From a virus: a DNA stretch of 38,343 bases. Of the stretch, positions 24,070 through 38,343 are shown one piece after another. Each line of letters starts with the position of its first letter. Position 1 is the stretch's first letter. Position numbers and translations under genes: made by a program. The notes below the pieces were generated by a model that did not search any database, was not told where the DNA came from, and was given only the letters and a program-made list of their open reading frames with translations. Location: the UHGV virus genome UHGV-0196443. The stretch is one strand, 5' to 3'.

Positions 24070-24082
24070 ATTCTCACCTCAA

Positions 24083-24154
24083 TTGCAGGAGAAGGAATCG
24101 AACCTTCGACCTTCAGCTAAGGAGACTGACGAGCTTCCACTGCTCTATCCTGCT
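24083..24154 (-). tRNA. tRNA-Arg(CCU)-like gene (72 nt cloverleaf with A1.A72 mismatch, no encoded CCA)
   Basis: Minus-sense folds by hand as AGCAGGA-UA-GAGC-AGUGGAA-GCUC-G-UCAGU-CUCCUUA-GCUGA-AGGUC-GAAGG-UUCGAUU-CCUUC-UCCUGCA-A. D, anticodon and T arms are canonical, with U33 and anticodon CCU. Position 37 is U and the 1-72 pair is mismatched. Confidence 0.45.
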
Positions 24155-24255
24155 ATATTTGTGCGATGTCGCACAGTGTAGGCTTTTGCCCAGAGCCTTT
24201 TATCGTCTTTGCTCAGGACGCAGAAAAGCATCCGGCTTTCGCCAGATGCTCTCTG

Positions 24256-24799: not shown

Positions 24800-24872
24800 T
24801 CCGGACAACGGGAATCGAACCCGTGACACACAGCTTATAAGGCTGCCGCTCTGACCGATTGAGTTATGTATC
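24800..24872 (-). pseudogene. Decayed tRNA remnant (intact T-arm and anticodon arm, acceptor stem unpaired)
   Basis: Minus-sense ...GCAGC-CUUAUAA-GCUGU-GUGUC-ACGGG-UUCGAUU-CCCGU-UGUCCGG-A. The 5' half (GGAUACAUAACUCAAUCGGUCAGAGC) looks like a mutated D-arm, and the 5' acceptor strand does not pair with the 3' strand. Confidence 0.3.
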
Positions 24873-24888
24873 CATATTTTTGTATTAG

Positions 24889-34092: not shown

Positions 34093-34815
34093 TCAAATTC
34101 TCCTGTTCAAACGGATCAGGATGTATCTTCGGTATTTGTATCCTGTTACCGGATTGATCCCTTCATGGTACGTCTCTTTATCTAGGTAGTATCCTTTTGG
34201 TGGCTTCGGCTCATCTTTCCATGTTTTCCTTTTGTAAATCTTCACTTCTGCCACCGGAATCTTTAAATTCCTGCTACAGGAGTACCGGCTCTCTTTCAGC
34301 TTGTTTTCTTCATCCGGCGTTTTACTTAAATACTCAGCCAGTTTCCGCAAGCCTCCCTCGTCATACAACAGATCGATGTGGACGCCTCCCTTTTCCCATG
34401 CTCTGCGCATGATCAGATCTGCATCCGGAATCCGGTTGATGACCAGATGGTGATGAACCCCGCCCCGACTTCCAATCTCGGTATGCAGCATCCATTTCAA
34501 CTCCACTTCCTGTTTTTTGTATTGTGTGCGTACTTTCTGAATCCACTTTCGGATGTCTTTGGCCGCTTCTTTCATGTCCTGTGGCCGGTTCTCCAATTTA
34601 TAAGTTAATGTCACCCAGTAGTCATTCTCCCGGAAATTCAGCTTCATCTTTCTCCAGCACTGCCGTTCTTTATTCCACTGATTCGTCTTCCTGATCTGCT
34701 CCGGTGTGGCTTTCTTCTTTTTCATTCTCGGCATTCCCGGAGCACCATATCTCCCGTTGTGATACTCCATCACTTCTCTGATGTCTCCCAGGTCATAACT
34801 CTTTTGTTTATACAT
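34093..34815 (-). CDS. HUH-superfamily rolling-circle replication initiator (Rep)
   Basis: 240 aa. Motif 1-like WVTLTY, motif 2 GGVHHHLVI (HUH), motif 3 AEYLSKT (YxxK). Confidence 0.6.
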   Translation of the reverse strand: MYKQKSYDLGDIREVMEYHNGRYGAPGMPRMKKKKATPEQIRKTNQWNKERQCWRKMKLNFRENDYWVTLTYKLENRPQDMKEAAKDIRKWIQKVRTQYKKQEVELKWMLHTEIGSRGGVHHHLVINRIPDADLIMRRAWEKGGVHIDLLYDEGGLRKLAEYLSKTPDEENKLKESRYSCSRNLKIPVAEVKIYKRKTWKDEPKPPKGYYLDKETYHEGINPVTGYKYRRYILIRLNRRI

Positions 34816-36367: not shown

Positions 36368-36396
36368 TTGTCATTTGTTTCCTTATCTCCTATAAT
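36368..36396 (+). promoter_or_regulatory. Promoter A (TTGTCA-17-TATAAT) of the switch region
   Basis: ttgtca (36368-36373), 17 nt, tataat (36391-36396). Followed by an operator-like palindrome. Confidence 0.5.
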
Positions 36397-36402
36397 TTGC
36401 TT

Positions 36403-36426
36403 ACAGGCATCTGCCAATGCCGAGTA
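36403..36426. promoter_or_regulatory. Operator-like element ACAGGCATCTGCCAATGCCGAGTA (GGCAT-N6-ATGCC palindrome), copy A
   Basis: Immediately downstream of the -10. An identical 24-mer occurs at 37529-37552 in the same position relative to promoter B. Confidence 0.5.
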
Positions 36427-36446: not shown

Positions 36447-36743
36447 ATGAAGCTTAATAGTCTCAAAAGCGAATTTTTGAAATACATGGTAAAGTCTTAC
36501 GCAAAAGATCATAAGCGTATATTTACATTTGAATCTTTCAAGTCTCTTTATCCAGAACTTGATGACGATTTTATTTCTGATGCTTTGTTTGCACTGGATG
36601 AAGATGGGTTTGTCCACGTGTTTAAAGCTGACGATGTCGCTTACGAAACCACTTTACTTCCAAATGCCATCTGTTCCGTTGAAGAAGATACACTTTTAAG
36701 AAAAGGCTACTCTTTTATCAAAGAGATACGATCATGGATTTAA
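36447..36743 (+). CDS. Hypothetical acidic protein expressed from promoter A
   Basis: 98 aa from MKLNSLKSEF with SD GGAAAGGAGA. The track ORF starts earlier, at 36417 inside the operator. No recognisable motif. Confidence 0.5.
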   Translation: MKLNSLKSEFLKYMVKSYAKDHKRIFTFESFKSLYPELDDDFISDALFALDEDGFVHVFKADDVAYETTLLPNAICSVEEDTLLRKGYSFIKEIRSWI

Positions 36744-36946
36744 TCAACCAATAACCAATCGTCTCTTATCAATTCATCTGCTGATGGTTGCCATCCGTAT
36801 TTTGATGGATTACTTCCATCAGCATTCATTACAATACAATTTCCTCGCCCATTTGTTGGCTTGATTTTCGCCCCACCTTCAAACTCTGGCAATGTTATGT
36901 ATTTTCTTTCTTCTAATGCCTGTTTCACTGCTTCCTGTATGTTCAT
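36740..36946 (-). CDS. DUF2829-like small protein (Tad2-like candidate anti-defence sponge)
   Basis: 68 aa. ...CIVMNADGSNPSKYGWQPSADELIRDDWLLVD matches the conserved C-terminal W...D..DW pattern of DUF2829 phage proteins. Confidence 0.45.
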   Translation of the reverse strand: MNIQEAVKQALEERKYITLPEFEGGAKIKPTNGRGNCIVMNADGSNPSKYGWQPSADELIRDDWLLVD

Positions 36947-36963: not shown

Positions 36964-37146
36964 CTACTCCAAAAAATAATCCACTGATACACCGAAGTAA
37001 TCAGCTACCTTTTTCAGCTTATCCACACTTGGAGACGATTCTCCCCACTTCTTAATTGTTCCGTTTCCAAAGCCCAGAGTTTTCTCAAGACAACTGATTG
37101 AGATGTTGTTCTTCTCTGCCAGCTTTAAAATTTTTTTAAGTATCAT
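36964..37146 (-). CDS. XRE-family HTH transcriptional regulator (Cro/CI-like)
   Basis: 60 aa. ISISCLEKTLGFGNGTIKKWGESSPSVDKLKKVADYFGVSVDYFLE is a typical HTH_3. SD AAAAGGAGGG. Confidence 0.7.
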   Translation of the reverse strand: MILKKILKLAEKNNISISCLEKTLGFGNGTIKKWGESSPSVDKLKKVADYFGVSVDYFLE

Positions 37147-37163
37147 AATTCCCTCCTTTTGTT

Positions 37164-37186
37164 TTCCATCTTGTAGACAACTGCAT
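37164..37186. repeat. 23-bp perfect inverted repeat, left arm (TTCCATCTTGTAGACAACTGCAT)
   Basis: Its exact reverse complement lies at 37452-37474. Together they bracket a 265-bp non-coding segment. Confidence 0.9.
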
Positions 37187-37451
37187 ATATATCTGTTACA
37201 ATAACCTTGTTACACTTAGATAATTTTCTAAAGGTCATAAATGGCTGGAAAGGAGTTGCCGAGGAGTAACAATCTTAAGGATACCTCCGCAAAAGGAGGT
37301 GAGACTTAAGGGAATTAATCCAAATAATTCTAGAATGTATTGTGTGCATTTTTGAAATTGTTAGATTTCTAGAAGACCACGATATGTAATAGTCTCTCCC
37401 CGTGATTATCATCCAACGATAGTTACGTGGAATCCTTTTTTCCGTACATAC

Positions 37452-37474
37452 ATGCAGTTGTCTACAAGATGGAA
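37452..37474. repeat. 23-bp perfect inverted repeat, right arm (ATGCAGTTGTCTACAAGATGGAA)
   Basis: Reverse complement of 37164-37186. Confidence 0.9.
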
Positions 37475-37493
37475 ATCTTTATCTTCACATCTG

Positions 37494-37522
37494 TTGTCTT
37501 TTACCCTTTTGTCTCCTATACT
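37494..37522 (+). promoter_or_regulatory. Promoter B (TTGTCT-17-TATACT) of the switch region
   Basis: ttgtct (37494-37499), 17 nt, tatact (37517-37522). Same architecture as promoter A. Confidence 0.5.
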
Positions 37523-37528
37523 GTTAAT

Positions 37529-37552
37529 ACAGGCATCTGCCAATGCCGAGTA
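37529..37552. promoter_or_regulatory. Operator-like element ACAGGCATCTGCCAATGCCGAGTA, copy B
   Basis: Identical 24-mer to 36403-36426. Confidence 0.5.
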
Positions 37553-37573: not shown

Positions 37574-37753
37574 ATGGATCATATTTCTGACATCTCTCAA
37601 TTACGAGAATTATTAAACGAATCCAGCCGAGAAATTCAGGAAAACATAAGTTCTTCCACTATTGATTTTGGTACAAAATCCCTTCTTGATTCTATTGCTC
37701 AACAAAATCATTATGTTCTGTCTGGAATTATCGAGTATCTTGAGAACAAGTAA
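37574..37753 (+). CDS. Small ORF (59 aa, MDHISDISQLRELLNESSREIQENISSSTIDFGTKSLLDSIAQQNHYVLSGIIEYLENK) from promoter B
   Basis: Not in the track (<60 aa). SD GAAAGGAGA 7 nt upstream. Confidence 0.4.
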   Translation: MDHISDISQLRELLNESSREIQENISSSTIDFGTKSLLDSIAQQNHYVLSGIIEYLENK

Positions 37754-37940
37754 TTTTTTCTTCTTCATCGCACTCTTCCACAACTACTTTTATCTGTGTA
37801 GGAGTGCGATAAAGAATATCTCTTGCTTGATCTATAAGCCTTTCTGCTTTTTCTAAATTATTTAATACTTCATTTTTCCCTTCCACTTTAATGCGCATGC
37901 TCTTTACCTCACTTTCTTTCATTTTGTTCCTCCTCTGCAA
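37728..37940 (-). CDS. Hypothetical small acidic protein
   Basis: 70 aa in the track. Likely start MKESEVKS at 37923 with SD GAGGAGG. Convergent with the promoter B gene. Confidence 0.4.
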   Translation of the reverse strand: MQRRNKMKESEVKSMRIKVEGKNEVLNNLEKAERLIDQARDILYRTPTQIKVVVEECDEEEKITCSQDTR

Positions 37941-38026
37941 AATCCATCGGGTTCACTCCAAGAAATTTACATATAATAATTGCTTCATCCATAGATAATA
38001 GTCGTTCTATTCTTGTTTATATCACT

Positions 38027-38281
38027 TTAAGTGGATTTTTGCGGCAAAAAAATATTATCTGTTGGTATTTTATATAATGCAGACAATGTATTTAATGTTG
38101 CGAAATTAGGTATGACTTTCCCCTTTTCCCAATTAAGTACCGTATTTTTTGATACATGCATCTCTTTTGCCACATCTTCTTGCGTCATCTCTGCATTAAC
38201 TCTAGCCGCTGCAAGACTGATCTGTAATTTTTCCAATTGCATCACCTCTTCTTTCTCTGAACCACTCCCTCGTTGATACAA
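38027..38281 (-). CDS. XRE-family HTH transcriptional regulator (candidate prophage repressor)
   Basis: 84 aa. MTQEDVAKEMHVSKNTVLNWEKGKVIPNFATLNTLSALYKIPTDNIF is HTH_3. Gene closest to the right end of the element. Confidence 0.7.
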   Translation of the reverse strand: MYQRGSGSEKEEVMQLEKLQISLAAARVNAEMTQEDVAKEMHVSKNTVLNWEKGKVIPNFATLNTLSALYKIPTDNIFLPQKST

Positions 38282-38343
38282 GTATATAGTACCACCACTT
38301 TAAGTGTGTGTCAATACTTAAAGTGAAACTATTTTGATTTTTT

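Follow-up and report, generated by a model that had tools for sequence, protein, structure and literature searches.

Near the right-hand end of UHGV virus genome UHGV-0196443, a prophage whose 38,343 nucleotides (nt) were analysed in full and are referred to as the window, two perfect inverted repeats enclose a segment of 265 base pairs (bp) next to a gene for a regulator of the XRE family, here termed XRE-60. An earlier note on this DNA had regarded the segment as non-coding, with no credible open reading frame (ORF), and had placed it inside the lysogeny switch. Our analysis reveals that it is, on the contrary, taken up by a small reading frame, which is conserved, as well as by a predicted promoter and a predicted terminator. 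What is new, as judged from sequence comparison, is an unannotated small gene which is bracketed by a conserved inverted core and resides in the leader of an operon encoding a phage regulator and an anti-defence protein; the puzzling “empty” segment turns into a gene with its own promoter and terminator and a likely operator of the form TAGA-N6-TCTA. As to the repeats themselves, we tentatively favour, with a rough probability of 0.38, that they are fixed, conserved boundary elements of this small gene cassette in the leader of the operon formed by XRE-60 and a Tad2-like gene, and that they pair with each other in the leader RNA. If this model of an RNA stem and an antisense transcript is true, the locus would represent a compact RNA/protein circuit over a second Cro-like regulator and a variable anti-defence slot, occupied here by the Tad2-like gene. 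No prior study of the XRE-60 regulatory region was found in the literature.

There are exactly two copies of the 23-mer TTCCATCTTGTAGACAACTGCAT in the window, one on the plus strand (37164-37186) and one on the minus strand (37452-37474). No third copy is found in the window even if up to three mismatches are allowed, and 100 shuffles of the sequence yielded no match. The repeat is slightly longer than the 23 bp initially reported since it extends to 24 perfect bases (37163-37186 and 37452-37475) and, including one mismatch, to 28 nt (37163-37190 and 37448-37475), with 257 nt remaining between the 28-nt arms. The outer end of the 24-nt left repeat (37163) is 17 nt away from the XRE-60 start codon. 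Several further observations of the earlier note hold as well, namely the XRE gene on the left side of the segment, a plus-strand promoter-like site on its right side (37494-37522), an RBS-like motif AAAGGAGGTGA (RBS, ribosome binding site) and two copies of the palindrome TTCTAGAA, located at 37328 and 37367. The copy number of this palindrome, however, is not above chance, and its copies are not conserved in relatives. A search of the repeat-flanked segment against Rfam, at gathering as well as at permissive thresholds, gave no match.

Comparing the 36 distinct versions of the segment obtained from about 55 related contigs (individual loci are denoted by L numbers), we could show its interior to be a compact unit read from the plus strand and composed of a predicted promoter, a structured leader, a hairpin sequestering the RBS, a small ORF and a predicted terminator (Table 1). 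The promoter, designated P_in, is the top-scoring plus-strand promoter and occupies the same position in every variant; its -10 hexamer spans 37197-37202, its spacer holds an (AT)n tract, and L060 features TGcTATAAT as its extended -10 element. The leader contains the palindrome TAGATAATTTTCTA (37217-37230), and its apical hairpin displays compensatory changes, five base pairs being altered on both sides. The RNA of the plus strand as a whole folds far better than shuffled sequences (z score -5.2). The terminator, recognised by the scan in L130, sits just inside the right arm and is confined to the plus strand since its stem lacks a U-run on the minus strand.

The 26 codons of the small ORF (37309-37386) are free of insertions and deletions although up to 26 of their 78 bases differ between relatives. 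Most of these differences affect codon positions 1 and 3 (e. g. 9/3/11 and 3/0/7 at the three positions), and the ratio of nonsynonymous to synonymous substitution rates amounts to about 0.2 to 0.45 in most of the more divergent pairs; it is near 0.8 for the window compared with L005, and the synonymous rate is saturated in one pair. In L005, L010, L019 and L027 the ORF comprises 49 to 50 amino acids (aa), starting from an ATG equivalent to position 37241 of the window, and the conserved part forms its C-terminus. In the window lineage a deletion of one nucleotide creates an in-frame TGA (37300-37302) upstream of the conserved part, which is left without a canonical start, while a 22-aa ORF (37241-37309) is retained. 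In a set of 5.8 billion proteins no more than three clusters are homologous to the 49-aa form. Against Pfam and NCBIfam the small peptides gave no hit at the curated cutoff; weak sub-threshold Pfam hits (E-values of 0.03 to 0.18) were returned for the peptides of three relatives. At the same place L055, L056 and L062 harbour unrelated hydrophobic mini-ORFs with KK or RK tails, the tail of the window peptide being acidic.

Some further properties of the unit should be mentioned. The (AT)n tract (37187-37193 and its equivalents) varies from two to four units among relatives, resulting in a -35/-10 spacing of 15 to 19 nt, and slippage within it could tune P_in. In L129 and L130 a change at the equivalent of position 37198 converts the -10 hexamer TACAAT to TGCAAT. 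This exchange should weaken P_in, yet it provides a better -35 element (TTGCAA) for a second -10 element (GATAAT) within the TAGA-N6-TCTA palindrome. The possibility that a programmed frameshift connects the 22-aa ORF with the conserved frame was considered and discarded as there is no plausible slippery site. Likewise, a 26-aa ORF beside the right arm in the “c” variants was rejected, being the reverse strand of the terminator hairpin. An arbitrium-like peptide, a retron non-coding RNA, a Q-type antitermination unit and a replication origin of the rolling-circle Rep type were all dropped since their defining parts are lacking.

Turning to the arms, each locus that provides enough sequence and harbours an XRE-60 relative with 75% identity or more contains a single convergent pair of the 10-mer ACAACTGCAT, with 265 to 425 bp between the two cores. 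The perfect run shared by the arms measures 10 nt in some lineages, 13 to 15 nt in others, 21 to 23 nt in L054 and L056, and 24 to 28 nt in the window lineage as well as in L010, L019 and L020. Owing to this variation, the universal element is the core ACAACTGCATRTAT of 10 to 14 bases while long perfect arms are specific to certain lineages. This core is invariant in 62 loci. The left arm is always located 13 to 17 nt upstream of the XRE-60 start codon. The right core constitutes an invariant island between two unrelated types of terminator on one side and at least five unrelated right flanks on the other, and this applies to all 34 distinct segments. A solo arm with no partner nearby precedes a second XRE-60 paralogue in L010.

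The cassette together with the XRE-60 module is tandemly duplicated in L010 (9954-11370), L026 and L129 (2186-3866); in L010 one of the XRE-60 copies is frameshifted, and the other is the one with the solo arm. Within the arms of the window lineage the only polymorphic position is 37176, where G is replaced by T or by A. This position represents both the third base of the P_in -35 hexamer and the centre of the motif TTGT-NN-ACAA; it varies in the XRE-side arm only and never in the right arm. Two other interpretations of arm-related motifs were abandoned. The idea that four CWGTTGTCT sites make up an operator array was dropped, as L040 shows no conservation at synonymous sites for the copy within XRE-60 and the fourth copy serves as the -35 element of the neighbouring promoter. 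The arms were also rejected as outward or mirror-image sigma-A promoters, since neither the right arm nor the stretch from the left arm to XRE-60 offers an acceptable partner element, be it a -10 or a -35.

The case for pairing of the arms starts from the way in which XRE-60 is presumably transcribed. The 17 nt between the left arm and its ATG include the RBS and leave no room for a promoter. Inside the cassette the promoter scan of the relatives detected no conserved minus-strand promoter, and no minus-strand terminator was found there either. To the right of the right arm, L060 and L062 have leftward consensus promoters (TTGACA-17-TATAAT) and L008 has a near-consensus one (TTGATA-17-TATAAT), and in L020 and L130 the upstream genes are co-directional. 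As XRE-60 has no adjacent promoter of its own, it would be transcribed leftward from beyond the right arm, starting from the early Cro-side promoter (38314-38286) and/or from a weak site within a repeat at 37494-37552. Both arms would therefore be part of one RNA. Upon folding of this leftward RNA the cores pair with a probability of about 1.0 in 13 of the 13 lineages folded. In the window a 30-bp stem results (z score -6.45) which ends 2 nt from the RBS of XRE-60, the duplex being only 10 to 15 bp long in several of the 13 lineages. Two A/G differences at the inner ends of the arms are compatible with G-U pairs on the minus strand only. In addition, the outer 12 nt of the arms read ACAAGATGGAAA in the window lineage and ATAAGA[A/C]TAGAA in the L056 lineage, with five positions being different, and in each of the two lineages both arms carry the version of their own lineage. 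Such matched versions would fit pairing of the arms; the core, on the other hand, never varies, and other lineages have unmatched outer arms. L015 and L052 combine one outer-arm version of each kind, with an XRE-60 protein identical to that of the window.

On this basis the following mechanism may be envisaged. The arms would form a long-range stem of 24 to 30 bp, a natural substrate of RNase III; the loop of this stem would correspond exactly to the antisense of the P_in RNA, and the left arm supplies the -35 element of P_in. Stem and convergent P_in transcript together would set the amounts of XRE-60 and of the downstream anti-defence gene product. XRE-60, in turn, probably represses P_in via TAGA-N6-TCTA, such that P_in RNA and XRE-60 would antagonise each other.

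Related arrangements are known from other systems. Long-range stems processed by RNase III, as in the rRNA operon, in the N-leader and sib region of lambda and in T7 early RNA, likewise bring together complementary sequences of one transcript to form a cleavable duplex of more than 20 bp. Cleavage of such a stem by RNase III separates upstream RNA from the downstream cistron or alters its translation. In contrast to these known cases, the present stem, which ends 2 nt from an RBS, is a predicted one, its loop holds the antisense of an independent small gene, and its core is invariant rather than merely complementary. The locus also resembles the type I toxin-antitoxin or cis-antisense loci of Firmicutes prophages (txpA/RatA and bsrG/SR4 of B. 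subtilis, CD0977.1-RCd11 of the C. difficile prophage phiCD630-1) in that it comprises an ORF of less than 60 aa behind a long, structured, RBS-sequestering leader, an overlapping transcript from the opposite strand, which is presumed here, and a prophage location. The hydrophobic peptides with KK or RK tails encoded by L055, L056 and L062 resemble type I toxins described for C. difficile prophages (PMC7699646). The window peptide, however, differs from type I toxins by its acidic instead of basic tail and by the lack of a canonical start; moreover, unlike in type I loci, no dedicated promoter for an antitoxin RNA was found or is conserved, and the part of the antisense partner would fall to the XRE-60 mRNA leader. 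With convergent-promoter switches (pR/pL of coliphage 186, Pe/Pc of P2, prgQ/prgX of pCF10) the locus shares facing promoters with overlapping, interfering transcripts and a helix-turn-helix (HTH) protein which is produced from one promoter and probably represses the other. It deviates from them in that the overlap of about 235 nt is bounded by inverted repeats and in that the inward transcript is terminated and encodes a mini-ORF, not a repressor.

A number of points weigh against pairing of the arms as their function. Co-transcription of the arms, as well as any cleavage by RNase III, is inferred, and the leftward promoter-like site nearest to the right arm in the window has a poor -10 element (TATAGG). 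The core of 10 to 14 nt is invariant in every lineage, even where both of its flanks are unrelated, which points to sequence-specific recognition over pairing alone. There are at least nine lineages in which the match between the arms covers only 10 to 15 nt, so that the stem would not abut the RBS there. Single mismatches are not consistently compatible with wobble pairing, as seen for the left-arm exchange of G to T and for T/G in L056. Finally, solo arms with no nearby partner occur, as in L010. Given the invariant core, the short arms, the non-wobble mismatches and the solo arms, the reading of the arms as protein-binding sites is a strong rival.

According to this rival reading, which we regard as possible if on balance unlikely, the arms are two DNA sites for a sequence-specific protein, be it XRE-60 or another conserved factor of the phage or the host. 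The left copy lies over the -35 element and the spacer of P_in while the right copy lies between the leftward promoters and the cassette. Their occupancy, possibly accompanied by looping of the intervening 265 to 425 bp, would keep P_in repressed and/or stop leftward transcription from reaching XRE-60. Such a function would be in line with the invariance of ACAACTGCATRTAT in 62 loci whose right flank and interior are mosaic, with the overlap of the left arm with the -35 element and spacer of P_in, and with the fact that the arm always travels with XRE-60, including the solo copies in front of paralogues. The sole variable position in the window lineage being the centre of TTGT-NN-ACAA points in the same direction. 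The right copy, however, overlaps no convincing promoter, and the core is asymmetric and lacks the dyad symmetry that a small HTH dimer would need; the only such element is TTGT-NN-ACAA, which the L056 lineage has lost.

Moreover, it is a different palindrome which tracks the XRE-60 family. Within 600 nt upstream of the genes of the XRE-60 family, TAGA-N6-TCTA is enriched 60-fold (1.38 compared with 0.02 per kb) and occurs in arrays, with two to five copies spaced by about 32 to 67 bp (loci L037-L103), and it is also present in relatives of 55 to 69% identity which lack the arms. The single local copy of the window (37217-37230) is located just downstream of P_in. Judged by this distribution, TAGA-N6-TCTA, represented in the window by TAGATAATTTTCTA, and not the arm is the likely HTH operator of the XRE-60 family. 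The arms are not operators of CI either, as phages with identical arms carry different types of repressor, namely the S24 type, the ImmR/M78 type and a short HTH protein. In addition, the distance between the arms varies (265 to 425 bp as well as steps of 2 bp), so that helical phasing is not kept. Recognition by one and the same XRE-60 protein does not explain the matched outer arms because in L015 and L052 an identical protein coexists with mismatched outer arms. Compared with looping operator pairs such as OL-OR of lambda, FL/FR of 186 and OR/OL/OD of TP901-1, the arms have in common that identical sites are placed a few hundred bp apart, one of them over a promoter. Those operators, however, are dyad-symmetric, and their relative orientation is irrelevant, whereas the present core is asymmetric and strictly inverted, and the separate palindrome fits the operator role better. 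The earlier proposal of a pair of identical operator sites therefore survives in so far as two protein sites may be at hand, while classical repressor operators are improbable in view of the missing dyad symmetry and of TAGA-N6-TCTA behaving as the operator of the family.

Rather improbable, in our view, is that the left arm alone is functional, as -35 element and upstream region of P_in and as part of the XRE-60 leader, and that the right arm is the relic of an old inverted duplication or template switch which now mainly serves as a short conserved anchor for the recombination of phage modules. In many lineages mosaic breakpoints indeed coincide exactly with the right core's outer edge, and the length of the arms is reduced to 10 nt in several lineages. 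Yet the right core is invariant between unrelated terminators and flanks in 34 of 34 distinct segments, which is hard to conceive without selection acting on it.

The geometry of the locus is reminiscent of an invertible DNA switch, as had been suggested previously. In such a switch a recombinase of host or phage would flip the segment at low frequency and thereby transfer the divergent promoter elements, now on the XRE-60 side, to the right-hand one. Arms of 24 to 28 bp around a segment of 265 bp are typical of invertons, as is known from invertible promoter switches (fimS/FimBE of E. coli, RecV-dependent switches of C. difficile, Mpi-dependent ones of Bacteroides) in which inverted repeats of 20 to 30 bp flank a promoter-bearing segment of 150 to 400 bp beside the regulated gene. 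Also, the promoter is split, with its -35 element in the arm and its -10 element in the interior. As a result, inversion would move the entire promoter/terminator unit to the other arm, the terminator-proximal end then facing XRE-60, and expression of the phage regulator and the anti-defence gene would be phase-variable within a lysogen population. We consider this very improbable. The orientation of the segment is identical in all of the about 55 related contigs (0 inverted), the junctions always connecting the XRE side with the arm and the promoter end, and the right side with the arm and the terminator end. A degenerate pattern specific to the flipped form, whose junction sequences read ...CCTTTTGTTTTCCATCTTGTAGACAACTGCATGTATGTACGG... 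and ...GATAAAGATTTCCATCTTGTAGACAACTGCATATATATCTGTTACAAT..., returned 0 hits from the three collections searched, whereas the forward arm pattern was found at 36 loci (15 in the viral, 20 in the metagenome and 1 in the genome collection). P_in is directed inward and terminated at 37397-37441, before the far arm is reached; hence it cannot act as a flip-out promoter, and there is no read-out across a repeat into a flanking gene. Furthermore, the arms measure just 10 to 15 nt in many lineages and lack internal half-site symmetry. No invertase is encoded nearby: among the ten window proteins searched against families, the sole recombinase is the large serine integrase, 35 kb away. We would like to note that orientation was judged on assemblies, which report the majority orientation only, for which reason a rare inversion could escape detection. 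Low-frequency inversion by a recombinase acting in trans, with a minority of less than a few per cent that would be missed by assembly-based tests, therefore keeps a slight chance of about the same order as the switch itself. The case shows that a perfect inverted repeat beside promoters is not enough to call an inverton.

An insertion of the kind of a miniature inverted-repeat transposable element, or of another mobile element with terminal inverted repeats, which a short segment bounded by such repeats had brought to mind, is effectively refuted: there is, as noted previously, no target-site duplication or other direct repeat beside the arms (flanks TCCTTTTGTT on the left and TCTTTATCTT on the right), no empty site was seen in homologous prophages, the segment is confined to a single genomic context in which cassette and XRE-60 co-occur in the same 27 IMG/VR contigs, solo arms stand beside XRE-60 paralogues without the segment, the 16-mer of the arm yields only isolated, chance-like hits across IMG/VR beyond the known family, and the interior is a functional gene unit of mosaic history and not a uniform element.

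Table 1. Coordinates of the small gene cassette, its arms and adjacent features in the window (promoter and terminator as predicted).
Feature	Position	Strand	Remarks
Tad2-like gene (PF11195)	36740..36946	-	68 aa; directly downstream of XRE-60
XRE-60	36964..37146	-	60-aa HTH_3 regulator; gene always accompanied by the left arm
Left arm	37163..37190		24 nt perfect (37163-37186), 28 nt with one mismatch; universal core ACAACTGCAT at 37177-37186
Promoter P_in (predicted)	37174..37202	+	-35 TAGACA (37174-37179) inside the left arm, 17-nt spacer, extended -10 TGtTACAAT (37194-37202)
Structured leader of P_in RNA	37205..37273	+	conserved; closing stem GUUAC/GUAAC, apical hairpin
RBS hairpin	37273..37311	+	ACCUCC pairs with Shine-Dalgarno-like GGAGGU; free energy -18 kcal/mol, z score -4.7
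Small ORF, conserved part	37309..37389	+	26 codons and stop (37387-37389): RELIQIILECIVCIFEIVRFLEDHDM*
Intrinsic terminator of P_in transcript (predicted)	37397..37441	+	stem 37397-37431, free energy -14.8 kcal/mol; T6 at 37436-37441
Right arm	37448..37475		universal core ATGCAGTTGT at 37452-37461; directly downstream of the small-gene terminator
59-nt promoter/leader repeat, copy 2	37494..37552		copy 1 at 36368-36426; 78% identical direct repeat
84-aa XRE gene (XRE-84)	38027-38281	-	promoter at 38314-38286

The prophage encodes the large serine integrase on the plus strand (191-1609) while nearly all other genes of the window are on the minus strand. It belongs to a very common gut prophage family of the Lachnospiraceae type; that the family is very common follows from the exact XRE-60 protein being indexed in 6,151 blocks of a public assembly collection. 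One matching metagenome-assembled genome is labelled uncultured Anaerostipes. Carriers of this prophage include the sources of L130, L133 and ERZ28527041. Among annotated phages only short matches to Ruminococcus gnavus phages were obtained, which cover the 59-nt promoter repeat and not the arms. In longer contigs of the same prophage type (L130, GCA_008681065.1; L131; L133, GCA_964271975.1) the lysogeny switch is located between the gene of a 212-aa repressor consisting of HTH and S24-peptidase domains and the 84-aa XRE gene. In the window this CI/Cro-type switch is found at and beyond the right edge. From the position of the divergent CI/XRE-84 promoter pair in the longer contigs it is evident that the segment does not lie inside the switch, as had been assumed, but about 0.8 kb downstream of it in the Cro-side early operon, ahead of a second HTH gene. 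In L128, L129 and L132 it is XRE-60 itself which faces the repressor gene, with the segment in between.

The CI gene (HTH and S24) is situated beyond the right end of the window, as in L130. The near-palindrome CACTTTAAGTG is present in three copies (38022-38033, 38296-38306 and 38316-38326) around the 84-aa XRE gene and the promoter of this gene, TTGACA-17-TACTAT (38314-38286), and these copies probably serve as operators of the actual CI/Cro switch. A 27-aa ORF on the minus strand (37909-37992, MDEAIIICKFLGVNPMDFAEEEQNERK) matches the last residues of a 76-aa XRE protein of L010 in 26 of 27 positions and looks like a recombination scar left where the 84-aa XRE gene replaced the N-terminal part. 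The slot behind XRE-60 is taken by the Tad2-like gene (anti-Thoeris family) in the window and by other small genes in relatives; due to this variability it looks like an accessory or anti-defence slot under the control of XRE-60.

The two copies of the 59-nt direct repeat contain the promoters TTGTCA-17-TATAAT (36368-36426) and TTGTCT-17-TATACT (37494-37552), followed by a conserved leader, ACAGGCATCTGCCAATGCCGAGTA, which includes the palindrome GGCA-TC-TGCC. Downstream of each copy lies a small ORF on the plus strand, one of 98 aa (phrog_3675) and one of 59 aa (37574-37753) with no family assignment, both of them set against the minus-strand early genes. Copy 2 also harbours the weak minus-strand promoter-like site considered above, consisting of TTGGCA (37543-37538), a 17-nt spacer and TATAGG (37520-37515) and directed leftward into the right arm. 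Where the 59-aa ORF of the plus and a 70-aa ORF of the minus strand converge, a 22-bp imperfect hairpin (37761-37816) is present which has no clear U-tail on either strand. Further away, a tRNA scan identified two unrelated phage-encoded tRNA genes on the minus strand, Arg (CCT) at 24082-24155 and Ile (TAT) at 24801-24874. The replication initiator (34093-34815, minus strand) is of the rolling-circle type, belongs to the REP_ORF2-G2P family (PF23343, phrog_3584) and is conserved in every relative.

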